Assembly: GCF_964355755.1 (NCBI RefSeq)
Contig: NC_092673.1
Span: 32,795,648 to 32,859,647, forward strand
Length of the DNA: 64,000 nt
Direction of reading: 5' to 3'
From: Antedon mediterranea
Taxonomy: Eukaryota > Animalia > Echinodermata
The translations under genes were made by a program, and so were the position numbers. The notes under the pieces were generated by a model. That model was given only the letters and a program-made list of their open reading frames with translations, did not search any database and was not told the origin of the DNA. Below, piece by piece: positions 16,694 to 56,300 of the stretch (the first letter of the stretch is position 1; every line of letters starts with the position of its first letter).

Positions 16694-19600
16694 TTAAATG
16701 TCGTACACTTTTTTCATATCTTCCGTCGCTTCTTTCATTGTAATATCTTTCCATCCGTCTGGTATATCAGCCAATTTACAATCGTAGTAATTAGCAAGTT
16801 GAGTATTGTATTTTGCCATAAACCATTTCCAGAACATCTCTGACTCGCCTGGAAGTGGTTCAATTTTCCATGATGCATAGCGTTCATTCACAGTCCTATA
16901 ATTTCTGTAATTAATCCATTCCTTGTTCGTATGTTTGTTTCTAAAGCGATAATCAGACAATACTGCAGTTGTGCATATGTCTGAGTTCAGTTTTTTAGAT
17001 TCCTCCCATCTATATCCTGCAACTCCTTTCGGTCTGTGACAATCTGTACGATGATGATCATGGATACCATTAAGTTCACATAATGCAAAACAAAATGGAC
17101 ACACCTCCTGGCAAGCTAGTAGATCAGCTGTAAATAAGTCACAACAGGTTGTGTTTATTTCATTGAAAATGCTACTATCATACTCTTTAACTATGGCTTC
17201 TTCAGTTTTCTCTAGTTCAGTTAATAATTCATCGCAAAGTTCTTTCAAATCCAGATCTCTTTCCTCCTCAAAAAACCTAATGTTTGGTTTGACGCATAAA
17301 CCTTTATTTATGCGTTCGAGTAAAGTTGACCACCATGGTTTCATTGTCATAGCACATTCCGATTTTAAAGTAAAGATAGCTTGTTTTAATCCACTTACTG
17401 TTTCATGAACTTTATCACTATGTATTTTTTGTAGTACAGACGTACCGGTTTCATTATTGTGTAAACACATTCTCTCTATTTTTTCAGAGGTGAACGTTCT
17501 GATGCACTGTATTGGATTAGACAAATATGGCACAAAAGATTGAAAATTGCCTTTCTCTGCTATTTCAATCAGCATCCATGCATGAAGAGACATCTTGCTG
17601 GAAAACCCTTTACCCGAACAGTGTCTTAGATAGTCGATTATTCCAAGTTCGCATTTTTTCGGAAGAGATGTTTCAATAGCACTTTTAAGCTCTCGGGATA
17701 TAGTCAATGCCACCTTAACAATTATGTGTAGATCTTTACATTCTTCTTTGAACATTTGCCACAAATCTTTTCTTTTAGACTCCATGTATAGTCTAGGCTC
17801 ATTTTCGCGCTTGTATTGTTCCTGAATTCTTTCTAACCTTGGTATTAGTTCAACCTTGTAAATGCACACGGCTAGTCTAATCTGTCCTTGTTGGCTAATG
17901 GAAACTTTCTCACCTAGTTTTATCATTTTGAGTTCGCATGATAAGGAGCTAAGAAGTTTATGTCCGAATTGTTTAGTGTATTGCTTTCCTTCCTGTGCAT
18001 GGATTGCGATCTCTCTTGTAAGATTCTCTATTATGCGTTGTTTAAAATAATTAGCCTGATTCACATATGCTTTTTTGCTCACGGAACCACCAGTAATGTT
18101 TCCAAGAAATTCAACAGCCCGTCTAATAAAATCTGATTCGCTTTGGCCTAACAACAAATCCGTTTCTTGCACGTTAGTATCAGAAAAAGTGTTCTTTAAT
18201 ACCTTAGCAACTTCCTTTGCGTCGTTTTCTAAGAAATACTCGCCAGTGATTTCTTGAAAAGACTCTTTTATATTTACGTAATCATCACTACTTGGTATGA
18301 CAGAAACCCACGTATTCCAGTGTGTAGCGAATTCCTGTTCAAGATCTTCATCAGAGAGGTGTTCATTTCGATGTTTGTCGGCCAACTCTTTAGCTTTTTG
18401 ATAGATGACTTGTTCCTGCTTCTTAATATTTGCGTCAATGTCCGCTCTTCCAATTATTCTTTTTTGAGTAGATTTAAACACTTCATTCAGTTCCCTTTCA
18501 CTTTCCCTACAAAGATCTTGGAGTTGTATTTCTATCTTGCCTTTCCATTGACACGCTTTTATTTCTTCTTGAAAGTAAGTTGCCATACTTGTCTGAAAAA
18601 AGTCAATGTCTGCCTCTAATTTCTTCAAGTAAGTGTCAATGATGTTCTTACCGTCTTCTTTCATCTTTTCAGCTGTTAGTTTTTTGCATTCGGTTTGAAT
18701 TCCATCGCTGTGCTCTAGTGTGCATATTCTGAATGTACGGGCATGTTTCACAAATTCTACATTCAAAGCAATAAAAGCTTGGATTTCCAGAGAATTTTTG
18801 AAGCTGAATACAAAATTTTCACATATTATGGCATTCCAAAGATCAGTCAGCAATATTGTGAATTCATCTATATGATTAGGTTTGGACTTCTTCATCAATT
18901 CCAATACTTGTTTCTTCACTTTAAGAATGCCTTGGCTGTAACCAGGATTAGGGGGCGCCATCGGTGGTTCTCCTTGCCAAAGAGTGGAAATGTACATTAT
19001 ATGTTCATTTTCTTGAAAATGAATGACGTCAGAAAACGATTCATATCTGTCACTGCAATGCTCTGCTTTAGCTGCAATTGTTGTCATTTTATCTAACTTT
19101 TCTAGCATACTTCTTTTTTGTGTGGTGGTCTTATCATCTGCTGTCACATCAGTGATGTTTTGGTGTACAAATAAGCAGCTTGGATTGATATTAACATTTT
19201 CCATTTTCATAAAAGCATGCACAGCAATCTGAAGTGTGTCCTGCATGTCTGTTGGGTTTTCTCCCATAATATTTATTATGGTAAGATCGCCCAAACCAAT
19301 CACGAGTGTGGCTAGTTCATTGTCATGACTGTTGTTCTGTTGATCACTGTCGAATTCTGGAGATCGCAAACCCTCAGTGTCAACCACCAGAATAAGGTCA
19401 CAGTTTGTTTCTTTTTGTAATTCTGTATCTAATGATACTAGCTGGGCGAAAATACCTTTAGTACATCTTCCGGCACTAACGGCAAATTGTAAACCAAACA
19501 TGGCATTTAACATGGTTGATTTTCCGCTGCTTTGAATGCCTAGTACAGACAACACAAACATCTTTTTATTGCCAATTTGACATTTAAGAGAATTGAATAC

Positions 19601-21444
19601 AGCTTTAATCCAGGTGAGAGGCACGTAAACCGCATCACCGTCCATCAGCTCAATGGGATATCCATGTAGCAACATTTCAGCAGCAACTTCTGGTAAGTGT
19701 GAATTATTAAATTCACCAGTTGACAATTTCAAAGCTGATGACATTTCATAAATTTGTACAATTTCTCTATTGAAATGTTCTAATCCTAGTGATTCACGTG
19801 ACAGTTTCTCTTCAAGTTCATCAAGTTCAGTTTGTCTTGATGTTAATGATGCCTTCGATGTGCCTGGTTTGTTTTTTCTTAGGTTACATAGGGCATTCCA
19901 TTTCTCGATGTACTCTGTACGTATTGGCTGTAACTTTTCAATGCTATACCGATCGGTCATTATCTTAACAAACCCAAAGTAATATTTTCTGTTTATAAGT
20001 GTGTTTGAGAATGAGCCTCTAAACAAGTCATATGTGTAATGGCCATCTCTGTGTTTTCTTAACTGTGTGTGACGTAGGTCTAGTATCTCTTGTTGTAGTC
20101 TATCAACATAGTTTTCAATTTGCATATTTCCTTTTTTTAGTAGCCGATACTTTTCTTTTTTCTTTTCTCCAAGTCGTTTTGTTACCATTTGCACGGGTAG
20201 CTCTTTTTGTTTTCCGCTTTCTACATTATTTATACGGGAAAGCAATGCGTCGGCACTACTTTTCATTTTGGAACAATCTTGTACCAATTCGTCAACGTGG
20301 AAATTCATTTCTTGTGCCTTTTCAATGCACGTCTGGATTCTCTTGTTGTTTGCATTTCTCCGTTTACCTTCCTGAAATTTAGATTCAAGCAATTTCCAAA
20401 TCTCGGTGCTTATTTTCAGCTCGTTCTTATTTGATGACATTGAAAATTGTATTTGTTTCTTTGCCTTATCTTTTTTGCCTTCCATTTTAACAAACACTTC
20501 TTGTAACTTCGGTCCAGGAGAACCATCTAAGATAAAAATCACGTCACCTTTTTGCTTGTACAACGATTCAAGCAACGAGACGTCATCTTGGTTAAAATCA
20601 GCATCAGCAAATGACACAAATACCACAGTAACCACCGAGATAGCGGATAAGAATTGTGTCTGATCTTTAAGCTTAGATGCATTACCTCTCAAATTTATGA
20701 AAGTTAGTGCATCTGAAAAAGTGTGTTTCTGTGTAGGAAGGTACCACGTCATTTCTAATAAACCATTTGTTAGCTTTCGTTTTAAATTACCACCTTTGCA
20801 CCCAGAATTAAAGAAAATGTCATGTTTCTGCTCATTAATGACACAGTTGACAATTTTAGATTTGGAAATGTTAGGTCTTCCTAATCGCAAAGCAGACAAA
20901 ATCGGTAAATCTTCTTCTACCATTGATTTTTCACAAGATAAACCTGAACTTGTTTTCCATTTCTTTGTGATTGTGCTCATTCCCCACACAATCAGTTCCC
21001 ACTCTTTGTCCCGTACGTCCGTGACCGGAATCAGCAACGGAATAGCTAACTGGCACAGCGACAATTTTTCAATAAAAATTTGTCTTAAAAAATTGTCACA
21101 ACACAAAAAAAGTGCTGTTAGTGCATCTAATGGACTTATTTGACTGTTATCATTATCATTTGTTTTTTGGTCTTGTACAACAGAAGAAAATGAAAATAAT
21201 TGATCTTCTTCCTCTTCTTTCGTCGGTTCTTCCAAATCAAAAGATCTTCCTTCGTAGTTACACATCATAATATTTTGCAAAATGTACCATGGAATTTTAC
21301 TTGGATCATCATTGAGGTCTGCTGGTAAAATCTCATGTTTGGAAATTACAAATACGTCTTCACGAGTTAGTCCTCTGGGATGATATTTTGTTAGTCCTAG
21401 ACGTTCAACCACTTGATGTATGTTGGATGTATCTGCCATCTTAT
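16694..21444 (-). CDS. GVIN1: Very large inducible GTPase (VLIG/GVIN1/URGCP family), intact giant terminal exon; 1581 aa from the in-frame ATG at 21439
   Basis: P-loop GIQSSGKST, SAGRCT, DTEG, DNELAT and LW.G.PPMAPPNPGYS motifs, and C-terminal CPFC..C..H..HRPKG and WKWF. Phase-1 acceptor TTTAG|ATAAG at 21444. The symbol denotes family, not orthology. Confidence 0.93.
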
Positions 21445-21555
21445 CTAAAGAACTGTAAATAAACCAAAGTGATGAAAATCCATTTCGTGATCTACCTTCA
21501 ACACACACACAAAAAAACACAGAAAATAAGCCTATCCACATTTTAACTTACTTAC

Positions 21556-21642
21556 TATTCAGTAAATACTGTGTCGTACTCGTTCCGATTAAATTAAAGA
21601 TCTTGGCATTGCCACACATCCCACTGTCTATCAGTACAACTC
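21556..21642 (-). CDS. Candidate 87-nt phase 1-1 coding exon upstream of VLIG copy 1 (VVLIDSGMCGNAKIFNLIGTSTTQYLLN)
   Basis: Acceptor CTTTTTAG| and donor A|GTAAGT. It is open and in frame with the VLIG1 acceptor across a 111-nt intron. Confidence 0.6.
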
Positions 21643-25443: not shown

Positions 25444-25639
25444 TTTAAACAACATAACTTTTACCAAATCATCAGACAGCCTCTGTAACACTCACTCTGT
25501 TTAATCAAATCAGATTTAAGACTACCGACGTCATCTTTTATTTAATTGTTCAAGCCGATATATTAATCAATGGTACTGTTTCAACTAATTAATATTGTCT
25601 TTCAGACCGCAAATTTTTAATTTAAACTAATATACGAAC

Positions 25640-32242: not shown

Positions 32243-35200
32243 TTAAATGTTGTACAAGTTTTTCATATCTTCCTTTGCTTGTCCATCGTACGTAGGTAAT
32301 ACACTTCCATCCGTCTGGAATATCAACCTCCTTAGCATTGTAATAAGCAGCAAGTTCGGTATTGTATGTTGCCATAAACCATTTCCAGTACATCCAGTGG
32401 TTCAATTGGCAATGATGCGTAGCGTTCATTCACACTTTTTCATTTCTCATGCGTGTGTTCATTGTTAAATCTATGATTTGACAATATATTAACATCCATG
32501 CATGAAGAGACATCTTACTGGAAAACCCTTTACTTAATAAATGTCTTAGATGATCGATTACTCCAAGATGGCATTTCTTTGTAAGTTATCTTTCAATAGC
32601 ACTTGTAATCTCTCGATATATAGCTGATGCGACTTTTACACTCTTCCTTTAAACATTTGCCACAATTCGTCCCTTTGAGACTCCATGTATAGTCTCGGGT
32701 CATTTTCGCATTTGTGTTGCTCCTGCATTCTTTCCAAACTGGGTATCAATTCAACCATGAAATTACATATGGACAGACGAATATTACTTTTTTCCTTAAT
32801 GCAAACGTTTCCTTCTATATTTATCTCTTTAAGATTACTCGATAGTTCTGAAAAAAGGTCAAATCCGATTTGTATAGAGTATTTTCCTCCATTCAGTTTA
32901 TGATTTGAGATTTTTTTTTTTAGTCTATTTAGAATGTCTTTTTTAAAGGAATTTGCGACAAACAAATAACGTTGTTTGTTCATGAAACCATACCCTGTGT
33001 TCATAACCCGAAATGATCTAAAATACAAATCCTTTTCAACTATTTCAGTTTGGGAAAGGTCAGACTGCAATACACAATTAACGTCTGACTGATGATGTCG
33101 TAAGTAAAATTCTCTTAAAATGCTTTCAAAAGACCTTCTTACATCTGCGTAATCATCAACAATTGGTATGGCACAAACCCACTCAATCCAGTTTTTAGCA
33201 AACTCACGCTCAAGATCTGCATCAGATAGTTGTTTACCTCGATACACGTCGGCCAGGTCCTTAGCTTTTCGATAAATGAATTGCATGTCAATGTTACCGG
33301 TAGCTCTTACAATTCTTTTATTTCGAATAGATGTAAATTCATCCCTCAGATCTTTTTTAATTTCTTTACCAAGATTTTGGAGTTGTAGCTCTATTTCAAC
33401 TTTCCATTGACATGCATTTTTTTCTTCTTCTAAATACGATTTCATATTTGCTTCAAAATCACAGATGTCTTTCTGTAATTTCTGTAAGTAACTGTCAAAG
33501 ATTTTTTCTCCATCTTGTTTTATCTTCTCAACGGTTAGTTTCTTACATTCATTTTGAAGACTGTAGCTATGTTCCAGTACGTTTCTTCTGAATGTACGGG
33601 CATGCCTCACATATTCTGCATTCAAAGCATTATAAGCTTGAATCTCAAGATAATTTTTGAAACTGAATACAAAATCTTGACATAATATTGCTTTCCAGAG
33701 ATTGGAAAGCAGCGTTATAAAATCCACGATACATTTAGCATTAGTATCCGCTATAAATGTCAAGACTTTTTTTTTACTTGAAGAATGCATTTGCTGTAAC
33801 TAGGATTAGGTGGTGCCATTGGTGGATCTCCTTGCAAAAGGCTGGAAATGTACAATATATGTTTGTTTTCTTGAAAATTGATGACATCAGAAAACGATTC
33901 ATATTTTTCACTGCAATTTTCTTCCTTGGCTGCAATTGATGTGATTTTATCCAACATTTCTCGCATACTTCGTTTTTTAGCAGTATTCAAAGCAGATTCT
34001 GTGACATCAGTGACGTTTTGGTGTACAAATAAACAGTTAGGACTGACTTTAACATTATCCATCTTCATAAAAGCATTAACAGCAATCTGAAGTGTGTCTT
34101 GCATGTCTGTTGGATTTTCTCCCATAATATTTATTATGATAAGATCACCTAAACCAATCACAAGCGTGGCTAGTTCATTGTCACGGTAGTTGGCCTGTTG
34201 AATGCTAGCAAATTCAGGAGATCGCAAACCTTCAGTGTCAACCACCAGAATGTAGTCACATTGTGTCTCTTCTCTTAAACTTTTATCTAATGACACCAGC
34301 TGAACGAATATACCTTTAGTACATCTGCCAGCACTAACAGAAAATTGTAAGCCAAACATGGCATTTAACATGGTTGATTTTCCACTACTTTGAATTCCTA
34401 GTACAGATAACACAAACATTATCTTGTTGCCAATTTGTTCTTTAAGGGAATTGAACACGGCTTTAATCCAAGTTATAGACACGCAGCCTGCATCACCATC
34501 CATCAGTTCAATGGGATATCCCTCTAGTAACATTTCAGCAGCAACATCTGCTAAGATAGAGTTTTCGGTGTCACTTGTTGATAATTTTAAATCTGATGAC
34601 ATTTCGTAATCCTGTCCAATTTCTCTATTAAAATGTTCTAATCCTAATGATTCCCGTGATAGTTTCTGTTCAAGTTCATCAAGTTCATTTTGTCTTGATT
34701 TTAATAATGCTTTTGACGTTTCTTGTTTGGTTTTTCTATTGTTGCATAATGCGTTCCATTTTGTAATGTAGTTCTCACGTATTGGTTGTAACCTGCTAAT
34801 GCTAAATCCATCGGTCATTATCTTAACAAACCCAAAGAAATATTTTCTTTTTAAAGGTGAGTTATTGAATGAAGCTCTAAACATTTTTTTTTTATTTTAT
34901 TTTATTCAATTTTCAGGTACAACAATACATGACAACACAGCGGTGCAACCCTGAGGATTGCCATGAGTGCAAAGCACTATCGAGATGGCTCTCCATATAC
35001 TGCACTAGAACATATAAGACAAACATTATACACAAGATGCTGGAGTTGTAAATTGTCATGAGAAAAAAACCCTGACATATGACAGGACTTGAACCCATGA
35101 CCCTTAGATTGGTAGCCAAGCATCATAACCACCAAGCCACAGCTCCACTCACTTGTGTGTACAACAATCACGTCTTTGTTGTTTAATTGTTTTTGACGTA

Positions 35201-36511
35201 GGTCTTCTATCTCTTTCTTTAGTCTATCAACGTAGTCTTCGATCTGCATCTTTTCTTTTCTTTGTAGCCGATGTTGTTCTTTTTTCGTCTCTCCAATTTT
35301 CACTGTTGCCATCTGCAAGGGCAGCTCGTTTTGCTTTCCCTCTCGAGTTACGCGCTCGAGCAATTTTTTGGCACTCTCTTTCGCTTCCAAACAATCTTTC
35401 GTTTCGTCAACGTGGTAATTCATTTTCTTTGCAACTTCAATGCACATCTCGATACTCCTAAAATCATTCTGACTAATTAAATTAACTTTAAGTAATCCCC
35501 AAATGGCTGAGGCTATTCTCAGCTCGTTCATGTTTGATGATTTTATAAAGTCTACTTGTTTCTCCTTATATTTATCACATTTCTTTATTGTTTGTAACGC
35601 CTTCATAAAATCTTTTCCTGGAGATCCATCTAAGATGAAAATTACGTGACCCTTTTGTTGGTATAATGATTTAAGTAATTGGGTGTGGTCTTCGTTAAAA
35701 TCAGCACAGGAAACAAAGGCAATAGTGACTTGTGATATCTCGGATAAGAAATTCGTCTGACTTTTAAATGTCAATGCATTTCCTCGCAAATTTATAAAGT
35801 TTATTGCATCTGAAAAAGTACCCGGCTTTGTGGGAAGGTACCATGCCATTTCTAATAAGCCATCTGATAATTTTTGTTCTAAATTACCACCTTTGGACCC
35901 AGAATTAAAGAAAATGTCATGTTTCTGCTCATTAAGGACATAGTTGACAACTTTAGATTTGGATAGTTTTGGTCTTCCTAACCGCAAAGCAGAAACAATC
36001 GGTAACCTTTCAACCACCATTGATTTTTGACAAGACAAGCCTGAACTCGCTTGCCACTTCTTTGTGATTTTTCTCATTCCCCACACAATCATTTCCCATT
36101 CTTTGTTAGGTACGTCCGTAACTGGAATCAGTAACGGAATAGCTAACTGACATATTGACAATTTTTCAATAAGAATTTGTCTTAGAAAATTGTCGCAGCA
36201 CAAGTAAATAGCTACTAGTGCATCTATTGGGCTTAATTGATTTGACACTTCTTCTTCTTGTAGAAGAGAAGATATTGAGAAGTATTGGATTTTGTCTAAA
36301 TCAAAAGATCTTCCTTCTTAGTTACACATTATAAGATTTTGCAACATATACCATGGTATTTTCCTTGGGTCGTCATTCAGGTCATCTGGTGAAATATAAT
36401 TTTCTGAAACTTCCAATACTTTTTCACGAGTTAAGTTTCTGTGAGAATTTTCTTGTAGTCCCAGATGCTTAACCACCTGCTGATGCATGTGCAATCTCTC
36501 TTTCTTCTTAT
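32243..36511 (-). pseudogene. GVIN1: Decayed VLIG/GVIN1 exon (copy 2)
   Basis: Homologous to copies 1 and 3. Lesions: TAA at 36318-36320 replacing Tyr of CNYEGR, SINE insertion at ~34884-35153, frameshifts at ~33770 and ~32640, and a large deletion after SLHAWML (~32480). Confidence 0.92.
34884..35153 (-). mobile_element. tRNA-derived SINE inserted in VLIG copy 2
   Basis: Pol III A box TGGCTTGGTGG (35129-35139), B box GGTTCAAGTCC (35085-35095) and an A-rich tail. It is absent from copies 1 and 3 at the homologous position. Confidence 0.85.
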
Positions 36512-37040
36512 CTAAAGAAAATAAAAAATAATATTGTATTTCAATATTTTAACTTGAGGTTTAATGGAAGTTGATTAAAAGTGCACATTAAAATCGTTTA
36601 GAGACCATATTGCATTATTTTTCTTTCAAATGTAGCACACATAAACTTTATATAATAACAACAACAACCAGCAACGCGGGAACGATTTTAGAAATGGGGG
36701 GTGGGGGTGTATCCATGATTTTAAGTAGGGGATGAGGCTTAGACACCAAATATTTGAGCGACAGGCGCCTACATACGCCTGTACTGAAAAATCTTCTTGA
36801 TATTAGTGTATACATTTATTTTAAGTTCCTTTTATCATATACATGCATATCTATATATTATAAAAGAAAGAGAAAATATGAATATTTTATGGATGCTATA
36901 TTTTTATACTTTAGAGAGTAATCCATCAGGTAAACAGTATGGTACAGATAGGTTCGAACCCATGACTATCATATGCTATTCCGATATCATCATTACACCA
37001 CCACTCGCTGGTATATACAGCACCCGCCGCGATTCCAGAC

Positions 37041-38120
37041 GGTCTGTGGAGCCGTGAAATGTGGAAAAAGTCACATTTGTGCAAACAACCACATTTGTTC
37101 AAACATTTTACCTTCAAATGTGCAAACAACCACATTTGTGCAAACATTTTATCTTCAAATGTGCAAATCTGTAAACATTCATTACCCGCAAATGTGCAAA
37201 CATCACGCCGTTAAATGTAAAAACGATCAGTTTTGACGTTAAATGTGCAAAAGGTATTCTACAAATGTGCAAATCATTTATTCAGTCAAATTCCTATTAC
37301 ATTTTATATTTTTGGTTCGTAGGTCTTTCAGAGTAGAAATAACAATAGGAGAATGATTCTAATAAATTTAAAATGCTCAATATCATAATAACTAATTATA
37401 CTGTTGTATTTTATTATGATCAAAGGCTTTAACCCGTCTAAGTCAAATTCAAGTCGACCCCAAGTCAACTCGCCCTGAAGTCAACTCGGCCTCACGTCAA
37501 CTAGGCCACTTTAAAGTATGAAACGCAAAGTGCAAACGAATGGGACAAAATAAGTCTAATGAACAGAAGAAAAATAATAAAAACGAAGTACGCATGTTAT
37601 AGGGATGAATATTAGAATGAAATGAATGTGAATGTTAGTTGACCGATTAGTTTTTGGCCGAGTTGACGTACGTGAGGCCGAGTTGACTTGAGGCCGGGTT
37701 GACTTCAGGGCGAGTTGACTTGGGGCCGACTTGAATTTATTCGAGGCGATTTAGAGCCTTTGATGATAATAAAATACAACAGTATAATTAGTTATGATAT
37801 TGAACATTTTAAATTTATTATACTCTTTTTCCTATTGTTATTTCTACTCTGAAAGACCTACGAACCAAAAATATAAAATGGAATAGGAGTTTGGTTGAAG
37901 AAATGCTTTGCACATTTGTAGATTACCTTTTGCAAATTTAACGTCAAAACTGATCGTTTTTACATTTAACGGCGAGATGTTTGCACATTTGCGGGTAATG
38001 AATTTTTACAGATTTGCACATTTTAAGGTGAAATGTTTGCACAAATGTGGTTGTTTGCACATTTAAAGGTAAATTGTTTGCACAAAGTGACTTTTTGCAC
38101 ATTTCACGGCTCCACAGACC
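37041..38120. mobile_element. ~1.08-kb palindromic foldback element
   Basis: GGTCTGTGGAGCCGTGAAATGTG... has its reverse complement ending at 38120. The arms are ~460 bp with AAATGTGCAAA and AAGTCAACTCG subrepeats around a short central spacer. Confidence 0.9.
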
Positions 38121-39035
38121 CTCACTACAACGTCTCACTATTTTGTTCTACAGATTTGTCTCTGTTTTCAAGACCCCAATTTTTGCATTCATCATCGATT
38201 CCATCTTTCATAAAAAAGTAATCACATGTAACTTATTTAAATTATCTCTATACAACGGGTTTTCAGAAGTTCTCTGAACCTATCGATTTGACGCTTTTTC
38301 TGCGACTGGCAGTGGCAGCAGAATCTAAAAATTAATATATTTTAGAACACTCTATGGCACTGTTATTATTCGATACTGGGCCTACTGTATAAAACATTTC
38401 ATATTTTAATTTATCAGCATTCGAAAACTGTATCAAACATGTATTGCTTTAGTTATCAACATTCGATATACTGTAGGCCTACTCTAATAAATGCTTTTCT
38501 TTTACTTATTACTGTATGCCTTTGTAAGTGTCTGCTTACCGGACCGTATCGTTTCCATTGCGAATGATTCGAAGATAGGCCTTGTCATATTATTATGTTG
38601 TGATTCTCTGTGTTTAGATAAGGATGCTTTAGACCAGGTCCGCCTTATATTATTAGCCAATCAAAATCGTATAATTTTTGGAGGGAAAATATTATCCTCC
38701 TCTGAAGCCTAAAATGTGCATGTCCAGTATAAAAGTGGAATGTAATAGATATTAAGGAGAAGAGAGAATAAGATCAGAGTAGATAAATGGAAAGATGATA
38801 AAGAAAATATTAAGGCTTGACTGGTAGTGGTAGAAAGATGTATTAATCGAATTACAAGGAATAAAAGTTCTAGTTGAGTTAAATATACTTTTTGTATGAG
38901 TTATCATTCTGTGACAGCTGTGTACGTCGCGTGGAGTTATATACGCCTGAGAAAGCTCGGAACCAACTAAAATAAATTCACTACAGGCCTACACATATAA
39001 TTTTTCGAATAAAAAGAAATTCATATGGTACTTAC

Positions 39036-39561
39036 CTTTAGCAAGTAGTAGATGCTTTGCACGTTCATTAAGACGACTTGAAAATGTCTCTACTTTGTCT
39101 TGTTTATCTCCTAATTTGTTGTTACTCTCTAAGTGAAAAACTACATCCCACATATTATGAAAGCCAACATGTCTCAGTTTGTAGTAGGCAATAACTTCAT
39201 CCATATCCTCTTTCTGAACTTGTTGTAAGGCTTTAAACAGCCGTTTTAGATATGGTGATAATGGCTGTATATCGTCAGAATTCTGAACTTTGTTTATCTT
39301 AATATAGTCAAGTACAAGATTTTCAGCAGCCTTAACTTGTGTTAACTCCGCAATCTCCAACAACAGGTTGACATTAGTAGGTAAGATGTCACCTTTCCGC
39401 TCAAGTTTATTGAACAAATCATGTGCTATTAAACGATCGTCTAATTCTCCGAAAGGTAGGTGATCGCATAAGCAGAATTTGAGCAAACGATACTGATCAC
39501 CCTTGTAGTGTTTACCCAGATTAGCGTTTAATTCCGTAAAAATCGTATTCAAATCTGCCAT
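39036..39561 (-). CDS. Coding exon for a death-fold protein, tandem death-effector-domain (DED)-like, 175 aa, ending in a phase-1 donor
   Basis: DED-like pattern LKF.LCDHLP..L.....DLF..LE..G.I...NV.LL.EI, then a second helical repeat. Acceptor TTTTACAG| at 39581, in-frame upstream TGA, and donor AAG|GTAAGT at 39036. Domain assigned by eye. Confidence 0.75.
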
Positions 39562-40234
39562 TTTATTTCATTTTTGTTTTGCTGTAAAAACAAAAGAGGA
39601 GATATATTAATTAATGTAATCAACATCATTTAATTCAAGTGTTACAATATTATACTCAAAAGAATACAAGGATTTGCATCGGCGGTGAAATAAAATGACT
39701 ATTCGACGCGCTTACCTGTCCTAAAGCACTGTTGTAAATCAAACAAACACGCTCTTTAAATCCGATGTCTGTTGCCACGACCCGCTATAGAATCAAAAGT
39801 TATTTTTAAAAATCAGGATCATAACAAAACGTATCCGTGTATAAATCGTATGCGCATTATAATTGCTCTAATGTCATGTCTCTGTCGAGGAATAATTGAA
39901 AACATTAATTGTAGAATGTGTATTTACAAAAATAAACAAAGATATAAAAGAAAAAGCAATAATAAAAGCATTTGGATAATTGGGAATTGAGGAAGCGAAC
40001 AATTTCTGCAGTTGAGGCCTTTTGTCAGATTATTTATATGGGTGTTGGTACGATGATTATTATTATAATTTTGAAAAAGTTTTAGAAACAATTGAAAAAA
40101 TTTAATCAAAGTTGTGGTTGGGATGGTTTATCAATGTAATTAATAAATCGTATAAATCAAACCACTCACAATAATTATAAATCACACGGATTTTTCCTGA
40201 CAAACTGAAAGTTATTATAAAATTGTAATAACTC

Positions 40235-45258: not shown

Positions 45259-48200
45259 TTAAATGTCGTACAATGTTTTCATATCTTCCGTCGCTTCTTC
45301 AATTGTAATATCATTCCATCCGTCTGGAATATCAGCCTCAGTACAACTGTAGTATTTAGCAAGTTGAGTATTGTATTTTGCCATAAACCATTTCCAGAAC
45401 ATCTCTGACTCGCCTGCTAGTGGTTCAATTTTCCATGATGCGTAGCGCTCATTCACAGACCTATAGTTTCTGTAATTAATGTATTCATCATTCGTATGTT
45501 GATTCCTAAACCTATAATCAGACATTACCGCAGTTGTACATAAATCTGGGTTGAGTCTGTTAGATTTCTTCCACCTGTATCCGGCAACACCTTTTGGTCT
45601 GTGGCAGTCTGTACGATGGTGATCATGTGGACCATTAAGATCGCATAGTGCTCTACAAAATGGACAAACCTCTTGACAAGCTAGTAAATCAACTGTAAAA
45701 AAGTCACAACAGGATGTGCTTATTTCATTGAAAAGTAGTATACTATCATAATCTTTAGTTATAGTATCTTCGACGCCGTTTAGTTCCAATAATAATTTAT
45801 CGCTAAGCTCTTCCAAATCCAGGTCTCCTTCTTCATCAAAAATCCGAATGTCTGTTTTAACACATACAGCTTTATCGATGTGTTCAAGTAAGGTTGACCA
45901 CCATGATCTCAGTGTGTGAGCATCTTCATTACGTAAACTAGTGATAGCTTGCTTTAATCCAGTTACTATTTCATGAACTTTACAACTGTATATATCTTGT
46001 AGTACAGAAATACCGAATGTGCCATCCTTCTGCAAACACATATTCTCTATTTGTTCAGAAGTGAACGTTTTGATGCACTGTATTGGATTAGACAAATACT
46101 GCACAAAAGAGTTGAAATTGCCCTTATCTGCTATTTCGATCAACATCCATGCATGGAGAGACATCTTACTAGAAAATCCCTTACTTGAAGAGTATCTTAG
46201 ATGGTCAATTACTCCAAGTTTGCATTTCTCTGGAAGCGATGTCTTAATAGCACTTGTAAGCTCTTGAGTTATAGCCAATACCAGTTTCACAATTATGTGG
46301 AGGTCTTTACATTCTACTCTGAACATTGACCATAATCTTTCCTTTTGAGACTCCATGTACAATCTCGGGTCACTTTCCCGTTTGTATTGTTCTTGCATTC
46401 TTTTTAAGCTGGGTAATAATGTAACCTTGAAATTACACACAGCTAGTCGGATGTTTCCTTTTTCCTTAACTTTAACCTTTTCATCCATTTTTATCTCTCC
46501 AATTTCACATGATAGTGTGCTAAAAAGCTGAAATCCTAGTTGTTTCGTATAACCTCCTCCATTCTGTGCATGATTTGAGATTTGAGTTTGCAGTGTTTCT
46601 AGAATTTGCTGTTTAGTGCAATTAGCCTGATTCACATATGTTACCTTACTTGTGTAACCAATCCAATGAGCAATTCTTCCAGCCACAGTGCCAAAATACA
46701 AATCTCTTTCAACAACTTCAGTTTGAGAAAAGTCAGATTGCAATGCACGGGTAACTTCTGATTTATGGTTTTCTAAGTAATACTCTTCGGTGATTCTTTG
46801 AAAAGACCTTTGTATATCTACAGGATCATCAAGTCTTGGTATTGCAGAAACCCACGCCTTCCAGTTTTTAGCAAACTCACTTTCAAGATCTTCATCAGAG
46901 AGTTGTTGATTTCGATACACATCGGCTAGTTTGTTAGCTTTTCGATAGATATCTTGTTCTTGCATTTAAATGTTGGCATCAATTTCAGCTCTTCGAATTA
47001 TTTTGTTTCTAATAGATGTAAATAGATCCATTAGTTCCTTTTTAACTTTCTTACACAGATCTTCGAGTTGTAATTCCATTTTACTTTTCCATTGACATGC
47101 CTTTGTTTCTTCTTCAAAATAAGATGCCATGTTTGATTGAAAACTGCCAATGTCTCCCTCTAATTTATGTAAGAACGTGTCGAGGATTGCTTCCCCATCT
47201 TCTGTCATCTTTTCAGCTGTTAATTTCTTACATTCAATTTGAAGTCCGTGGCTGTATTGTAGTGCATTTCTTCTGAATGTACGGGCATGTTTCACATATT
47301 CTGCATTTAAAGCATTAAATGCTTGGATCTCGAGGGAATTTTTGAAACTGAATACAAAATCTTGACATAATATTGCTTTCCAAAGATCAGATAGCAGTGT
47401 TGTGAACTCATCTACACTTTTGGGTTTTACATTCTTAAGGAATTCTAGGACTTGTTTCTTTACCTGAAGAATGCATTTGCTGTAACCAGGATTGGGAGCG
47501 GCCATCGGCGGATCTCCTTGCCAAAGGCTAGATATGTACATCACATGTTCGTTTTCTTGAAAATGAATTACATCAGAGAACGATTTGTATTTTTCACTGC
47601 AATTCTCTGCATCTGCTGCAATTTTTGTGATTTTATCCAACATTTCTCGCATACTTCTTTTTTGTGTCGTATTCAAATCAGATGCTGTGACATCAGTGAC
47701 GTTTTGGTGTACAAATAAACAGCTTGGGTGGATATTAACATTATCCATTTTCATAAAAGCATGTACCGCAATTTGAAATGTGTCTTGCATGTCTGTTGGA
47801 TTTTCTCCCATAATGTTTATTATGGTGAGATCACCTAAACCAATTACAAGTGTGGCTAGTTCATTGTCACGGTAGTTGGCCTGTTCGATGCTGCCGATTT
47901 CAGGAGACCGCAAACCTTCAGTGTCAACTACAAGAATATAGTCACATTGTGTGTCTTCTTTTAAACTTGTATCTAACGATACTAGCTGGGCGAATATACC
48001 TTTAGTACATCTGCCGGCACTAACGGCAAATTGTAAACCAAACATGACATTTAACATTGTTGATTTTCCACTACTTTGAATGCCTAGTACAGATAACACA
48101 AACATTCTTTTATTGCCAATCTGGTCCTTAAGTGAATTGAACACGGCTTCAATCCAAGTGAGGGGAACGTGGACTGCATCACCATCCATCAGTTCAATGG

Positions 48201-49967
48201 GGTATCCCTCTAGTAACATTTCAGCAGCAACTTTTGGTAACTGACTTTTTTCTTCTTGTTTTTCATTTAGATCTGATAACATTTCGTAATTCTGTCCAAT
48301 TTCTCTATTAAAATGCTCTAATCCCACAGACGTACTAGATAGCTGTTTTTCAAGTTCATCAAGTTTATCTTTCATTTTTTGAAGTGATGCTTTTGATGTA
48401 TCTGGCTTCTCTTGTTTGTGGTCACATAATTCGGTCCATTTCTGTATGTACTCTTCACGTATTGGCTGTAGCTTTTGAAAGCTATATCTATCGGTCATTA
48501 TCTTAACAAATCCAATGAAGTATTTTCTTTGAATAGGCTCGTTTTTAAATGATTCTCTAAACAACGTATATGTGCAATTACTGCTGCGCTGCCTGTGTAG
48601 TTGCAACTGTTTACGACGTAGGTCTTTTATTTCTTTCTTGACGATTTCAACGTACTTTTCAATTTGCATATTTTCCTTTCTTAATAATTGATGTTGTTCT
48701 TTTTTCATCTTTCCAATTTCCACTGTTACCAACTGTAAGGGGAGCTCCTTTTGCTTTCCTTCTTTATCTATGCGCTTAAGCAACATGTTGGCAATTGTTT
48801 TTGCTTCTGAACACTCTTTTACGATTTCGTCAACGTGACAATTTAATCTCTTTGCTACTTCCATGCACGCCTCGATACTCTTATAAACACTTTCTTGCTT
48901 ACTTTCTTTAAAGTAAGATACAAGCAAGTTCCAAATGTCTGTACTTATCCTTTGTTCGTTCATGTCTGAGTACATAAGATACTGCACTTGTTTTTTTAAG
49001 TTTCTGAATTTTTTTTTAATCCCACTTAAGGTGCTTTTTAGAACGTTTTCAGGAGTTCCGTCTAAGATAAAAATTACGTGACCCTTTTGTCTATACAATG
49101 ATTCAAGCAACGAGGCGTCTTTGTCACTAAAATTAGCGCTGGAAACAAATGCAATAGTGACCGTTGATATATCAGTTAAAAATTGTGTCTGAAGTTGGAA
49201 ATCCGATGCATTTCCTCGCAAATTTATGAACGTTAGTGCATCTGAAAAAGCATTCGTGTTTTTCTGTGAGGGAAGGTACCATGCTATTTCTAGTAAGCCA
49301 TGTGACAATTTTCGTTCTACATTGCCACCCTTGCACCCATAATTAAAGAAAATATCATGTTTCTGCCCATTAACGACATAATTAACAACCCTAGATTTAG
49401 ATATTTTAGGTCTTCCTAATCGCAAAACAGACACAATCGGTAACTTTTCTACCACCATTGATCGTTCACAAGATGAACCTGAACTTGTTTTCCATTTTTT
49501 TGTGATTGTGCTCATTCCCCACACAATCATTTCCCATTGTTTGTCTTCTACGTCCGTCACTGGCACCAGTAATGGAATAGCTAACTGACATATCGAAAAT
49601 TTTTCAATTAAAATTTGCCTTAAAAAGTTGTCACAACACAAGAAAATAGCTACCAGTGCATCAATTGGACTTATTTTACTGTTTTCGTTACTTTGATCTG
49701 ATTTTTCTTTAAGAATAGAAGAAAGTGAAAATGATTGATTTTTTTCTATGTCAAAACATCTTCCTTCATAGTTACACATAATCAGATTTTGCAGCATGTA
49801 CCAAGGTATTTGGCTTTGTTTATCACTGAGTTGTTCTGGTGAAATAACTTCTTTGGAAACTACAAATACATCTTCACAAGTTAGTTTTCTTGGATAGTTT
49901 TTCTGTAGTTTTAGATATTTAATGTGGAATGATACCTCTGTATTCCTCGGTGAAGGTATAGTTTTAT
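45259..49967 (-). CDS. GVIN1: VLIG/GVIN1 giant exon (copy 3), full length apart from one in-frame TAA at 46966-46968
   Basis: ORFs 46966-49992 and 45259-46965 abut in the same frame (DANI*MQEQ versus DANIKKQEQ in copy 1). GTPase motifs are intact. Phase-1 acceptor TTTTTCAG|ATAAA at 49967. Confidence 0.88.
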
Positions 49968-50707: not shown

Positions 50708-52126
50708 CTAGATGGTCATGGCCACAGATGGTTTTCGAATACATAGTAATTTCACCTTTAAAAAATTGGCGACTTCAAATGTACATGCAATACAATAATA
50801 CATGTCGTTTACAGGAACGAATAAATAGACACATTGATTTATCTACTCAACTAAAATTAGCACCCTGGGAATTACTTCCGAAAGAGAAACTTGTCACAAA
50901 ATAAGACCAATTGTTTTGAAACAAACTGAATTTGTGTTTTGTATGCAACATGAGGGTTGAGGGTTGAGGGATAGGGAAGAAGATGGGTGCAAAGACGAAC
51001 AATTTTTAAATATATTCTTTATCCATTTAGTAACGAAATTTATACCTCCATGACTAAACACAGTAAAACATTGCTATTTAATACTTTGTTGAAACTGTCA
51101 CCATTATAGTCGATTGAAATAGTACACTAATACGACGTTTATATTTTTTGTACAGTAATTAGATTATTAATTAATATTAACGTTCAGAAGGAACTGTCAG
51201 TAATAAAGTAAACATCTCTATTCGGGGAATATCGTAAATTCGCTTTAATCGTCAATAATTAATTATCTAACTTAACTTAATTAGTAGGTCTAATGGTTTT
51301 GAATTGTTTCTTAGATTAGAGCCAATTCATATTTAAGTTGGTTTCTAACCACCAAAGTTGTTCTGCGTTTAGGGCATGTGATCCTTCATACCGTACCGTA
51401 GGCCTATCCCCTAATGGCTTTACAATGCTACTCATGCCAGTGAGTGGGAGGGTGGTGGTGTGGGTGGTGGTTTAACTGCAATAATAAAGATGATTGTACA
51501 TAATAGACGGCGACTGGAAAGGCTAGCTCATTATCCGTTAAAAAAAATACCTATATCCAACCTCTGGAGCACAGATTGGATAAAATGGATCGAATTTCGT
51601 TTATGACTGTACAGTACTTGTCTTTACGACGCCTGAGGGAATAGACACTTGTGGAACAGAGATTGGAATGTTCCATTCATCGCAGATCAAAACAGTTGTA
51701 TAAATGTATATTAAATCTGTCAAAATAGTATTTTTTTAAAGACAATCGGCCTGTCTTCAACATTATGATGCTATACTTGAGCTGTTCAACCGGTTTTCAG
51801 CTATTAAAAACAATTATCGTAGGAGGAGATAGGAAAATGCGAAGCATCCTCGTATTATTGTGTGCAGGTATTTTTTAAGAGGACATATATTAGACAGTGT
51901 ATACTACGGTCGGAAAACACCCCTATTTGGGGCAAATCGTTGAACCTAAATTCGTTTTAATTGTCAATAACTAATTATCTAACTCAATTTAATTAGTAAA
52001 CAGGCTTACATCTGGTGGTTTAAATCAGTACCGTGATTCTAACCAACTTTACATACCATCGAGTAAACATTCTAGAAAAAACGCGCGATTTACCGAATTT
52101 TGCCCTTACGTAAATTTATATATAGA
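50708..52126 (-). mobile_element. Non-autonomous Helitron, second copy (uninterrupted, 3' hairpin deleted)
   Basis: A|TCTATATATAAAT 5' end and CTAG|T 3' end. It is colinear with 8617-9352 plus 12779-13488. Confidence 0.85.
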
Positions 52127-52464
52127 TATAAACAATCCTATTTTTATAACAACGGTAATTTTGAAAAGCACATCCTTTCCTCACTTGTAATAAAATAAAT
52201 GAAAGATATATTAGCATAATGAATACTTTACATCGTCTAAAAATATCCAGACGGTAAAATGAAATACAGTAGGCCTACCGTGACCTGATATAAAAACGAT
52301 CACGAAACGTATAATGATCATGGAAATGTATTTAGTGCGCCAAATACAAAATCGCGAGATGCAATAAAACCCAATCGATTTAAAAAACACGACCGGTATA
52401 ATAATGGATCGAAATAGCAGAGCTAGTGGCGCGAGCCATAACAAATTTTAAAATAATTCTTATT

Positions 52465-52605
52465 TGTTGGGCCCGACCGTCTGTGGTCCCGGTTGTCTTA
52501 CCACCTTGTTGGCCCGATCGTCTCACACTTTGAGCCCGATCGTCCCACGCTTTGGGCCCGATCGTCTGGAACTGATCGTCCGTAGTCCCGAACGTCTGTT
52601 CCCCC
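52465..52605. repeat. Array of CCCGATCGTC-like repeats, probably a DNA-transposon terminus
   Basis: About seven spaced copies of CCCGA(T/C)CGTC. No partner end was found. Confidence 0.5.
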
Positions 52606-53394
52606 TCGGGAAGCACAGTTTTACCACAGGTGTATTCAAAGATTCGCCGCCCGGAAGAATACATTTATTTTTGGTTACGCACTTTTCAGACACTGCAAAA
52701 TCTATTCCTCTTAGATATTGTATAATATTTCTGAAATTACATACAATAGGTACGTCATGCGTGTCATAGAAGTCTTACTTTCTGTTTCCTTTCAATAATG
52801 TAGGCCTAATGATTTTGTTATTGAAAAGTGAGGGGGACATCCGCCACTAACAAAACATGTGGGTGGAAGGAGCCCTCTCTCATCCAGGATAATAATAATC
52901 ATATAATCAATATAATAATACTGATAATGATTATTTGATCAAGTGTATTTCTGGTTATTTTTTCTGTTTTTTATAATGTTTTATTTTATGTTTGGCCGAT
53001 TTATATAACACGAACAAAATAATCTTCTTTTGGGCTTCATTAGAGTTCTCTTTAAAAAAAAAACGAAAATAAATGTTTAGATATTTTTATTATACAGGTC
53101 AATCTTGGCAATGATAATGATAATAATAAATTTGTTCAGTATGTTCGGAACCGTTTGATTTAACAGCAGGAACAGTCTGAGAGATAAGTCGACTTATTTT
53201 TCATCAATATTAATATGATTTTTGTGTGAAATATACTTTGGTACAAGTGATTTTTGTGATGCACTTTCGAGTCAGAGGTCAATGAACTATTTTTTCACGC
53301 AATTTTACAAATATCTTTATTTTAAGGCACAGTGTTTGATGACGTGTTACTCGTAGCTCTTCTTCTATTGGTACTCTTTTTGATATTCGTCGCT

Positions 53395-53677
53395 GCAGAA
53401 CTGAATCTTCTTTTCAATCATATATCCCACGTGTTACCAGAATTTGGAATAACTTACCCAGTGAAATCCGCAACTTAAATCCAAAACTATGGAAAACTCT
53501 ACCCCTCGAAATACGCTCATCAAAATATGTTATCACATTTAAAACTAAACTCAAAACTCATCTCTTCAGAGAAGCATAATCACACGCTACTACTTGCACA
53601 GATCTTGGAAAACACAGCGTTTTGAAACCTTTGTCTCTTGCGCTTTATAAATGTTATTTATTATTATTATTATTATA
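53395..53677 (+). mobile_element. LINE 3'-end fragments (L2-like)
   Basis: WN.LP.EIR and FKTKLKTHLF coding remnants, followed by GCGCTTTATAAAT and an (ATT)n tail. Confidence 0.7.
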
Positions 53678-54188
53678 GGTGAAGAATTGTTTGGCTAGTG
53701 AGTATGTTTGTCGGCGGCTGGAAAATTAAAAATGTTGTTTATTGGAATGAATGAAAAAAAGAACCATAATTCAAAGTGTCAGGTCAAAAAGTTGAGCAGC
53801 GTTGTTTGTAAGAAATATTTCTGGTTTTTGTTAGTCCACTAGTTGGCGTTTTGATTTTTTTCTGAACCGAGCTGAAGTATTATAAGTATTATATACCATA
53901 TGCGGCAAAAATGTTATCTTTCTATCTTTTTACTAATAATATTACTGTACTTTGAATCAGTCTAAAACATAGACTATCTAGATACTTACATCAACTACTT
54001 TAAGCATAGGATTACATAAGAAATAAAAAACGTTATTTTAGATGGACAACATTCAGCTTTGTAGTTCCATGATAATTAAAACTAAATTAAACAGTTAACA
54101 ACAGCATTATTAATATGTTATGAAATATTTACATATAAACAAATACAAAAATGATTAAAACTAAAATACAATTATTGTATTTACTAAC

Positions 54189-54261
54189 TTGCTTCTGTTA
54201 ATGTTTCTTCCACATTTACAGCATCATTTTCAAAACCAGGTAAAAGTTCGTCATCTGGCAT
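54189..54261 (-). CDS. 73-nt acidic linker exon (MPDDELLPGFENDAVNVEETLTEA), phase 0 to phase 1
   Basis: Acceptor TGTTTATAG| and donor A|GTTAGT. It bridges the phase-0 kinase donor and the phase-1 VLIG3 acceptor exactly. Confidence 0.72.
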
Positions 54262-54486
54262 CTATAAACATAAGATAATTATATAAGTGTTTCAACATTT
54301 GTACCAAATACAAGAGCACATTAAAATAATAAAATGACAAAAGAATATTCTAAGATGAGTAAATGTACAAATCAAATGAAAATATAATAAAACAGTGGGA
54401 TACAGTTATACAATGGAGAAATAAGTTTTTAGAGGATATTGGACAATAAATGATGTGGAAGCAGAACATTCATTAGGCTATATATA

Positions 54487-54650
54487 CGGTCAACTCTCCC
54501 AATATGGAACACCTTTGGGGTGGGTAAATATGTCTGGTTTTCCGAAAAGTCTGGATTTCAGAATGTATTTTTAATGGTAAATTAATTTTAGACCTTAAGA
54601 AAAGTCTGGTTTCCGGTTTTTAGAGAGTCCGGTATTAGGAGAGTTGACTG
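54487..54650. mobile_element. Tc1/mariner/pogo-like MITE with TA TSD
   Basis: TA|CGGTCAACTCTCC ... GGAGAGTTGACTG|TA. Confidence 0.8.
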
Positions 54651-55167
54651 TATTAGAATGTGTAGAAAACCAATAGATATTTTTCAAATAAACATTTTGA
54701 GCATTTCAAATTTTTCAAAATTGTTGCGCTCTCCAAGTCTGTGCGCAAAACTCGTACGAAGCGTAGAAAGTGCAGCCCCTACTGTAGACCAAGCTTAATA
54801 TAGCATGTGCATGTTACGATGCGTTGCGCAATAGCCTAACTTGTCACCGTGACAAATCTAGCACATTCATCATACATCTGGTGTACACATTTTTGCTTAT
54901 TTTCAAACTTTCAGTTTCTTTTTCACAAATTCTTATATTCATTTTGTTAAATACATGTGATCCACTTGCAAACACTGATATTGCCATTTACATTAAATAA
55001 ATATAAGAATTATTATAGTTTGTTTGAATACATTTAGATGAAAATGTTGTGAATTCATAGTAGAGGATTTGGATCACTTTTTATGATCTACAGTAGTATC
55101 ATAATCTAGGGAACCCCAGTCTGATGTTAGTCAATTGTCATTGAAAGAGATATTTAAAAAAACACAC

Positions 55168-56034
55168 CTCTATAAAATCTTTGACTTTAATCTTTAATGT
55201 AATAGACAAGTCCTGCATGGTTTGCAGTATATCTAAAATACTTGGCCTTTTCATTCTGTCTGTCTCCCAACAACTATGTAGCATATCCTTTAACTTAGAG
55301 GGCATTTCATCTAGCGGGTACATACCATCCACCCTCTCAGTTTTATCCGCTTCAAGCAAGGTCCTCATTTCCCATATCACAACACCGTAAGAATATATGT
55401 CTGAACGCTTTGATACCTTTATCTTTGACCCACGGCCTTTAAAAAAAGCCTCAAAGTTTTCAGGAGCCATCCATGGAAGAGAACCAGTATATGTAGTAGT
55501 AACGGTCTTATCAGTTAGGCAGGAAATTCCAAAGTCACAAACTTTCAAATTATGTTTATCAGTAATTAAAAAATTTGGTGATTTGATATCTCGATGAATG
55601 ATATCAAGTTCATGAAGATACTGTATTGCAAGAGCGCCTTGCCGGGTCCAGGTGAAAAATTTGTCATCCTCAAGAAGTTGCTGCTGTTCTCGTTTCTGGC
55701 TTAAATAATGAAATAATGACCCATTTGCTGCATATTCCATTATCATACAATCCATATGATCCTTCTTACTAACCCCTAGAATCTCAGTTATGAAATTTCT
55801 ACCAATGTGTTTTTTTTCTTCGTCAGCTTTAATTTTTCTTAATGTAACAATTTCAATTTCTCGAAAATGGTTGAGACGTTTAATTGCAACTGGCATATCT
55901 TTTTTAGTTTTCCACACCCCTTTCAACACACTGCACGTTCCACCATGTCCAATAAGTTCTCCAAATTCAATATCATTACATTGTATCTCTAAAATCTTAG
56001 GATATGGTTTTAACACTGTTTCATTACTTGCCAT
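55168..56034 (-). CDS. TKL-group (MAP3K/MLK/ZAK-like) protein kinase exon, 289 aa
   Basis: GHGGTCSV, VAIK, HRDIKSPN, DFG, GSLPWMAPE and SDIYSYG motifs. Acceptor CTTTGCAG| at 56056, in-frame upstream TAA, and donor GAG|GTGTGT at 55168. Confidence 0.92.
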
Positions 56035-56300
56035 TATTGTTGCTTAAAGGGGAAATCTGCAAAGAAAAATAAACATATACATTATTTTATATGCAAGTTA
56101 TCTTCATTGTTTACTACTCATACTTTCTCTTCACCAGACTGTCCCTCCTTTGTTATACTTCCTTCAATTGACTAAGGCAGCTCATATTATTACTTATTGC
56201 AAAGAAAAAGGATTAGTGCTACCCGAAAGCTCTGCAATTCCTTTCTGGCTGTTTTAATCCATCGTTTTGATTTAGCTTTTTGCTCATATTTTTTTGTATA

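Follow-up and report, generated by a model that had tools for sequence, protein, structure and literature searches.

A crinoid VLIG/GVIN gene array in which two cores have probably gained different N-terminal heads, a kinase and a putative tandem DED

A 64,000-nucleotide stretch of DNA from the crinoid (feather star) Antedon mediterranea, referred to here as the window, contains exons of different kinds upstream of three related VLIG/GVIN GTPase exons. The question raised by this locus is whether the upstream exons are N-terminal heads of the GTPases and, if so, whether each is spliced to its neighbour alone or to any core further downstream. Judged from the sequence, it would seem likely that this is a tandem array of single-exon VLIG/GVIN genes, two copies of which have gained different heads, a kinase and a putative tandem DED, by exon shuffling, with each head probably spliced to the adjoining core alone. 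Both of these copies now carry stops, and the third is intact with its own ATG.

16694 to 21444, minus strand: V1, an intact single-exon VLIG/GVIN core of 1580 residues, ATG at 21439
21556 to 21642, minus strand: candidate 87-nt exon before V1, 111-nt intron, open in frame
32243 to 36511, minus strand: V2, a VLIG pseudogene with a stop, an insertion, at least three frameshifts and a deletion of about 600 nt
34885 to 35183, minus strand: SINE-like insertion of about 300 nt inside V2, with a B-box-like GGTTCAAGTC and an A-rich tail
39036 to 39581, minus strand: DED-like exon of 546 nt, encoding a 175-residue tandem module from ATG 39561
39716 to 39784, minus strand: candidate 69-nt 5' UTR exon of the DED gene, tag/CGG...CAG/gtaagc as read from the sequence
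45259 to 49967, minus strand: V3, a VLIG exon with a single premature TAA at 46968-46966
54189 to 54261, minus strand: acidic linker exon of 73 nt, phase 0 to phase 1, used in RefSeq XP_071948948
55168 to 56056, minus strand: single-exon TKL-type kinase of 289 residues, ATG 56034, phase 0 end

The three VLIG/GVIN exons are 76-78% identical in DNA sequence over 3,965-4,662 aligned nucleotides. As the original prediction had it, each begins at a phase-1 ag/ATAA acceptor (21444 for V1, 36511 for V2 and 49967 for V3; the slash marks the splice point), and phase-1 donors are present upstream at 54189 (A/GTTAGT), 39036 (G/GTAAGT) and 21556 (A/GTAAGT). The acceptor is common to the three copies by duplication and descent, not by convergence. 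For two coding heads, the chance of a phase-1 end in both is, taken alone, about 1 in 9; any translated fusion of head and core must satisfy this phase. The Pfam domains URGCP and URGCP_GTPase score above their cut-offs in V1 (243 and 425 bits; residues 100-398 and 427-834) and in V3 (256 and 417 bits), and in V2 they score 253 and 386 bits in separate frames. The GTPase motifs G1 (GIQSSGKST) and G3 (DTEGLR) are intact in all three. Values of dN/dS of 0.24-0.46, calculated from the sequences over codons 10-1004, show past selection on the cores, with branch-specific N/S counts not separating V2 from V1 and V3 (p 0.40). A single long uninterrupted core exon is true of V1, V3 having one stop and V2 many lesions. 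Only five of the 14 Antedon VLIG models on the same scaffold are full length, and on this evidence the locus is a birth-and-death array of VLIG genes. The RefSeq models of the three copies look prediction-driven and are not independent RNA support, since that of V2 (XP_071948946) avoids the lesions with invented introns and that of V1 begins at the internal Met 59. Three mapped read runs (X1, X2 and X4) behave as genomic DNA, with coverage extending over introns and intergenic sequence; no GT-AG joint is present among the 15 listed of 183, these genomic runs being uninformative on splicing. No promoter signal was seen in the CpG profile.

Of three headed genes as first proposed, in-frame heads do lie before V2 and V3, but both of these cores are broken and V1 has no recognisable head. 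V1 is the only intact copy, and its in-frame ATG lies 5 nt past the acceptor in a strong context (AAG ATG G), so the 87-nt exon upstream need not be coding and is probably 5' UTR. This exon has no stop in the required frame, a property found in 9% of 5,000 shuffles too, and no homologue of it was seen. No coding head upstream of V1 was detected by tblastn, nor among open exons longer than 90 nt with GTRAG donors between 21700 and 32200.

The kinase has intact VAIK, HRDIKSPN, DFG and APE motifs (positions 49, 147, 167 and 190), its closest solved relative is ZAK/MAP3K20 (PDB, E 4e-32), and it is predicted to be an active TKL/MLK-type enzyme. Joined through the 73-nt linker to V3, as had been suggested, it translates in frame and is identical to XP_071948948 up to its stop. 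The first 56 codons of V3 contain no in-frame ATG. Of the 11 Antedon copies whose 5' core is intact, V3 alone has no Met in the stretch of roughly 12 residues leading up to the conserved first block, and can retain that block only if a coding exon lies upstream. Loss of the native ATG is not a mark of every headed copy, being true of V3 alone; V2 and the paralogue P0008 retain the Met.

The kinase fusion stops at residue 1313 of 1882 because of the in-frame TAA, past which 568 codons are still open. Its product would be a kinase-URGCP-GTPase protein of 1313 residues without the C-terminal third, most likely a young null or hypomorph. An assembly error is unlikely since the stop is also present in genomic read contigs, though the runs may be from the source sample. 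In two DNA runs of one sample the contig is identical to the window, and its depth of 301, the upper of two levels seen (about 150 and 300), hints that both haplotypes carry the stop; the X1 contig across the stop has three differences from the window somewhere along its length. A stop-restart design, with the TAA followed by an ATG, was rejected as the paralogue P0005 has a Met at that point. The stop might instead be tolerated or useful, either because the 1313-residue form works or because it is a segregating allele, with the 1882-residue fusion in other animals. The kinase motifs and both GTPase-region domains precede the stop, the tail is open with a dN/dS of 0.40 against V1, and, being in the last exon, the stop would not be expected to trigger nonsense decay. 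According to a recent preprint, human GVIN1 works although its in-frame stops had led to its classification as a pseudogene (bioRxiv 10.1101/2025.03.24.645074). A tolerated stop nevertheless seems rather unlikely given the depth of the identical contigs in that one sample, the conservation of the missing C-terminal third from crinoids to birds and the frequency of truncated copies in the array.

Upstream of V2, the DED-like exon has an in-frame TGA ahead of its ATG and a strong phase-1 donor right where the module ends. The predicted join to V2 is borne out in that it reads in frame, the first 206 residues being those of XP_071948946. The 69-nt exon lies before it across a 134-nt intron, in a layout like that of the small exon before V1. 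The Pfam DED match covers the first half of the module only (E 1.4e-5, 25.7 bits against a cut-off of 35.9), its top three ESM Atlas clusters are DED/vFLIP-like (0.91-0.93), and the fold model is poor (pLDDT 57), with the best Foldseek match, to caspase-8/cFLIP DEDs, not significant (E 1.1). Of five matches to the module one is the module itself, and the other four are found as C-terminal modules in Roc-COR proteins of the same scaffold, at 42-45% identity; the alignment with P0125 spans residues 1-173 of 175. On sequence comparison its closest relatives are these Roc-COR tails. In the Antedon Roco proteins XP_071948733, -757, -758 and -759 the tandem DED is C-terminal to Roc-COR, whereas at V2 it is N-terminal on a VLIG core. 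A phase-1 donor and a module that recurs in unrelated Roc-COR proteins are both marks of exon shuffling, the phases here being read on the VLIG side alone. V2 itself is a pseudogene and cannot yield a head-core protein. An early TAA at 36320-36318 falls at codon 240 of the DED fusion, frameshifts are found near 33775, 32645 and 32395, and about 600 nt (about 200 codons) are deleted at 32487. For the SINE-like insertion no target-site duplication was found, and the window contains no further copy of it. With a Met of its own at codon 8, V2 is not dependent on the DED exon.

This Met, and the internal start of the RefSeq V1 model, would fit with the kinase and DED exons being separate small genes, or pieces of genes, that came to lie in the array; the fusions would then be prediction artefacts, and translation of the cores would always have begun at their own or internal ATGs. 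A stop follows within 12-17 codons when either donor is read through, and each head could therefore stand alone as a gene. The linker splice sites are also weak, ranking second of 119 open phase-0-to-1 candidates by a crude home-made splice score, and no second kinase-headed VLIG was present among 198 heads examined. We consider separate genes unlikely, however, as the conserved first block of V3 is free of lesions yet has no in-frame ATG before it, the strong donor of the DED exon sits exactly at the module end, neither head showed an alternative coding exon downstream, and a DED-VLIG protein is also found in the ribbon worm Lineus (XP_064621207).

If the heads were gained by exon shuffling, as we prefer, each would have been inserted as an exon into the intron just before a core exon. 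The ancestral acceptor would have lain 5 nt ahead of the start codon with the frame open, so that a coding exon of any kind placed upstream could be read in frame onto the core, provided its donor was in phase 1. By analogy to human GVIN1, the core may bind GTP, dimerise and coat a microbe or membrane, clustering the heads; clustered kinase heads might then trans-activate, and clustered DED heads might nucleate filaments with FADD/caspase-8-type partners.

The further proposal that upstream heads splice to any downstream core (kinase or DED onto V1), as a repertoire or to rescue broken copies, is unsupported and very improbable: strand and phase would allow it, even via the symmetric 87-nt exon, and V1 is downstream of both heads, which are intact with their adjoining cores broken, but the order is that of normal tandem genes, a head and then its core (kinase-V3-DED-V2-small exon-V1), with no variable array ahead of a constant exon. 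Every core is a terminal exon that ends in a stop of its own, with AATAAA/ATTAAA hexamers within 1.5 kb (a weak signal in AT-rich DNA); splicing would have to jump 17.6 or 32.7 kb, past one or two strong acceptors, and descent accounts for the common phase. With a single lesion across the 568 codons of its tail, V3 has been damaged only recently, and heads still intact are to be expected in any case. In clustered protocadherin and UGT1A loci variable exons are arrayed before one shared constant region; the Antedon array resembles them in its phase-compatible upstream modules on one strand and differs in having its own terminal core exon after each head.

That the VLIG core is a module whose heads are swapped over evolutionary time finds support both here and across animals. 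V2 and V3 have six collinear blocks in common in their 3' flanks (852 nt), and their 5' introns do not align at E<=1e-3; the absent 5' homology could reflect repeat insertion instead of recombination. In the core tree both headed copies fall within an Antedon clade (100/100), with a headless paralogue next to each (support 93/95 and 93/85, short of the starred threshold). Among the best 150 of 2,211 VLIG representatives, 110 of the 148 that were mapped have a core beginning within query residue 15, and heads run from 0 to more than 2,000 residues. A Pfam domain was found in 19 of the 50 non-GVIN heads scanned, some having several: AIG1 (seven), FN3 (five), CARD (three), kinesin (two) and, once each, PYRIN, DED, RING, Ig, RRM and a stonustoxin-type MACPF. 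The kinesin and perhaps further heads may be fused gene models. The canonical GVIN head as a MACPF was a weak lead and was set aside, with one of six proteins over the cut-off and the precomputed matches on two bird proteins not reproduced. The kinase head is provisionally unique among VLIGs, since the kinase search was limited to 507-2000 residues and E<=1e-30, and the representatives covered were the best 150 of 2,211. No account of VLIG head diversity or kinase-VLIG fusions was found in the literature consulted, mostly abstracts, which does not establish absence from print; the main text of PMC8195603 does not mention VLIG.

VLIG-1/GVIN1 are interferon-inducible very large GTPases, and human GVIN1 forms coats and is predicted to dimerise; its coating of bacteria has only recently been shown and requires an inducible co-factor whose identity is unknown (bioRxiv 10.1101/2025.03.24.645074). 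Human GVIN1/VLIG-1 has the same two domains (PF25496 URGCP and PF25683 URGCP_GTPase), G1/G3 motifs and single-exon core as the Antedon genes, and in-frame stops occur in some copies of both. The GVIN-type N-terminal region of about 870 residues, found in bird proteins and one Anneissia protein, is missing from the Antedon copies, which have instead no head, a kinase or a tandem DED. Animal NLRs also have shuffled N-terminal effector domains (PMC3879445, PMC2858798), and resemble the VLIG array in lineage-specific tandem expansion, gain and loss of heads, architectures reached independently and a core often in one exon. The VLIG core is a dynamin-superfamily GTPase without an LRR sensor, whereas that of NLRs is a NACHT ATPase, and signalling by VLIG heads is only putative. 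No NACHT or LRR match was obtained in any window ORF scanned, and the likeness to NLRs is architectural only. It is a tentative and somewhat doubtful suggestion that VLIG/GVIN proteins are an overlooked NLR-like receptor family, pathogen-coating scaffolds that cluster interchangeable CARD, PYRIN, DED, RING ligase, GIMAP/AIG1 and MACPF-type effectors, with the crinoid kinase-VLIG an expressed, working and previously unseen kind (as the 1313-residue form or a full-length allele elsewhere) coupling the coat to a ZAK-like kinase.

The heads across animals name candidate downstream activities, namely death-fold signalling, ubiquitin ligation, pore formation and, in Antedon, a stress-type kinase, and such a catalogue makes the question of the GVIN1 co-factor testable. 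The window itself points to a plausible route by which heads are gained: the phase-1 acceptor is open and sits just ahead of the start codon, and the DED module also occurs in Roc-COR proteins. Its value is reduced in that both headed copies are damaged and the putative fusions were deposited in RefSeq before, as models that drew no comment. Mammalian CARD6 is another death-fold-headed VLIG protein, and death-fold heads occur on the same core start in CARD-VLIG (Chiloscyllium XP_072447559 and Leptodactylus XP_075142198), PYRIN-FN3-VLIG (sturgeon) and the Lineus DED-VLIG. The Antedon tandem DED is akin to the Roc-COR tails, and its VLIG protein is on a branch far from the Lineus one; the two are therefore probably separate gains. 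CARD-VLIG is retained in three species of bamboo shark.

The DNA of the window is animal and AT-rich, and the proteins it encodes are 99-100% identical to RefSeq models of a crinoid, Antedon mediterranea. From 56 kb downward, the minus strand carries in order the kinase, the linker, V3, the DED-like exon, V2, an 87-nt exon and V1, where V1-V3 are the giant GTPase core exons.

Exons of the VLIG cluster
56056-55168, minus: kinase, single exon
54261-54189, minus: linker exon, 73 nt
49967-45259, minus: VLIG exon V3
39581-39036, minus: DED-like exon
36511-32243, minus: VLIG exon V2
21642-21556, minus: 87-nt exon
21444-16694, minus: VLIG exon V1

The Pfam domains URGCP and URGCP_GTPase were found in V1, V2 and V3, and the G1 and G3 motifs are intact in all three cores. 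As the original prediction had proposed, each of the three VLIG acceptors is a phase-1 ag|ATAA, and the donors upstream of the cores are also phase 1 in all three cases. The acceptor is common to V1-V3 because the exons are duplicates, 76-78% identical, which rules out a convergent design.

The state of the copies had gone unseen in the original prediction. V2 is dead, with a TAA at 36320-36318, a SINE-like insertion of about 300 nt, several frameshifts and a deletion of about 600 nt; a DED-V2 transcript would stop at codon 240, ahead of both GTPase-region domains. V3 has a single premature TAA (46968-46966). In two DNA runs from a single sample, a 952-nt contig spans it and does not differ from the window, so this stop is not an assembly slip. 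The depth of this contig is the upper of two levels, and the TAA may be present on both haplotypes. Up to this stop the kinase fusion would keep the kinase, URGCP and GTPase domains, and the last 569 codons would be lost. V1 is intact, with an ATG in strong context 5 nt inside the exon. The 87-nt exon in front of V1 is laid out like the putative 69-nt UTR exon that precedes the DED exon; the 87-nt exon is open in frame, for which the chance is 9%. Judged by dN/dS values of 0.24-0.46 (codons 10-1004), V2 and V3 show the signature of selection through most of their history. Of the 14 Antedon VLIG models on this scaffold, only 5 are full length.

The kinase-linker-V3 translation matches RefSeq XP_071948948 exactly and that of DED-V2 agrees with XP_071948946 over 206 residues, although these models are not independent proof of the fusions since the lesions were patched with invented introns. 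The best argument for the V3 fusion is internal to the sequence: the first 56 codons of V3 contain no in-frame ATG. Of the 11 Antedon copies whose 5' core is intact, the 10 others all carry a Met just ahead of the conserved first block, the point at which alignments start for 110 of the 148 relatives mapped. The linker exon, which is weak and ranks second of 119 candidates, counts against this fusion. For DED-V2, the strong splice sites of the DED exon and its end at the module boundary favour a fusion, but V2 retains its own Met, which counts against it.

The DED module has five matches, and the four that are non-self all lie at the C-terminus of Roc-COR proteins encoded on the same scaffold. 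Identity to these tails is 42-45%, and the pairwise alignment with one of them, P0125, covers residues 1-173 of 175. Assignment as DED is based on a Pfam match below threshold, on neighbours in the ESM Atlas (0.91-0.93) and on a fold that matches weakly. These Roco proteins (P0124-P0127), with their terminal tandem DED-like module, form an expanded family, one member having an additional predicted hydrophobic tail. The kinase head has all its catalytic motifs, with ZAK/MAP3K20 as the closest solved relative.

The 3' flanks of V2 and V3 have six collinear blocks in common, and no shared sequence was found between their 5' introns, as expected if the 5' side had been replaced; repeats could hide homology. 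A 25-core tree unites the Antedon cores in one clade, in which each headed copy pairs with a headless one (moderate support), and places an Anneissia protein with a GVIN-type head as the first crinoid branch. The simplest reading would be that the heads were gained recently and separately, after loss of an ancestral head. Among other Antedon VLIG models, the head of P0008 is an acidic tandem repeat whose junction at Q-D-K is compatible with the same phase-1 acceptor, and that of P0012, possibly a fused model, is hydrophobic.

With an open phase-1 acceptor right before the start codon, any coding exon lying upstream could become a head provided that its donor is phase 1; tandem duplication would test such combinations, most of which would decay. 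The combinatorial splicing of heads to cores originally proposed is permitted by frame compatibility, but that compatibility is inherited, heads and cores alternate in the locus, every VLIG core is a terminal exon and cross-splicing would require skipping 18-33 kb including strong acceptors; we consider it very improbable. Head shuffling in animal NLRs (PMC3879445, PMC2858798) parallels that proposed here, though the VLIG core is not NACHT-LRR. According to a preprint (bioRxiv 10.1101/2025.03.24.645074), human GVIN1 forms a coat around bacteria in the cytosol; it is predicted to dimerise via its GTPase domains and requires a co-factor of unknown identity. By analogy, a GVIN1-like coat would cluster fused heads, which might lead to kinase trans-activation or DED filament seeding.

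The VLIG family is already known, death-fold-headed VLIGs occur elsewhere and both fusions are in RefSeq, unremarked. Neither the kinase head nor the Roc-COR-shared DED module on a VLIG had a counterpart in the sequences and literature searched, most subscription journals being outside that scope. Among the best 150 of 2,211 VLIG representatives, 108 have heads of at least 70 aa (49 GVIN-like, 59 not). Domains were scanned in 50 of these 59, the other nine being eight heads shorter than 100 aa and the V2 model from the window itself, and 19 of the 50 were recognisable: AIG1, CARD, FN3, PYRIN, DED, RING, Ig, RRM, stonustoxin-type MACPF and kinesin. These heads, ten of which were looked up, come from sharks, bony fish, a frog and a ribbon worm. 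Except for V3's, no kinase match was found among 198 heads, and searching longer proteins for the same kinase turned up no other VLIG. The GVIN-type head of P0142 (aa 273-439) scored slightly above the MACPF cut-off, alone among six proteins tested; another VLIG, P0150, has a stonustoxin-type MACPF head. The ancestral head may thus be a pore-forming fold. By eye, the N-termini of P0113 and P0116 (VLIGs of a prawn and another host) resemble retrotransposon gag fragments, with no Pfam match.

The window also contains repeats and mobile elements.

Repeats and mobile elements
1-2218: 39-bp satellite, about 46 + 5 copies
9378-9820 and 12428-12778: near-palindromic repeat with a 20-bp unit, in two arrays
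37038-38123: MITE-like element within the DED-to-V2 intron, inverted arms of about 470 nt, 88% identity
56802-59685, plus: LINE-type retrotransposon, ORF1-like and reverse transcriptase, in-frame stops
60307-64000, plus: Gypsy-like LTR element, PNMA-type gag with zinc knuckle, aspartyl protease, pol past the window edge

The LINE-type element and the kinase exon are on opposite strands, with the element some 750 nt upstream; the first exon of the kinase gene may be in or beyond this element. The satellite yields several spurious long ORFs.
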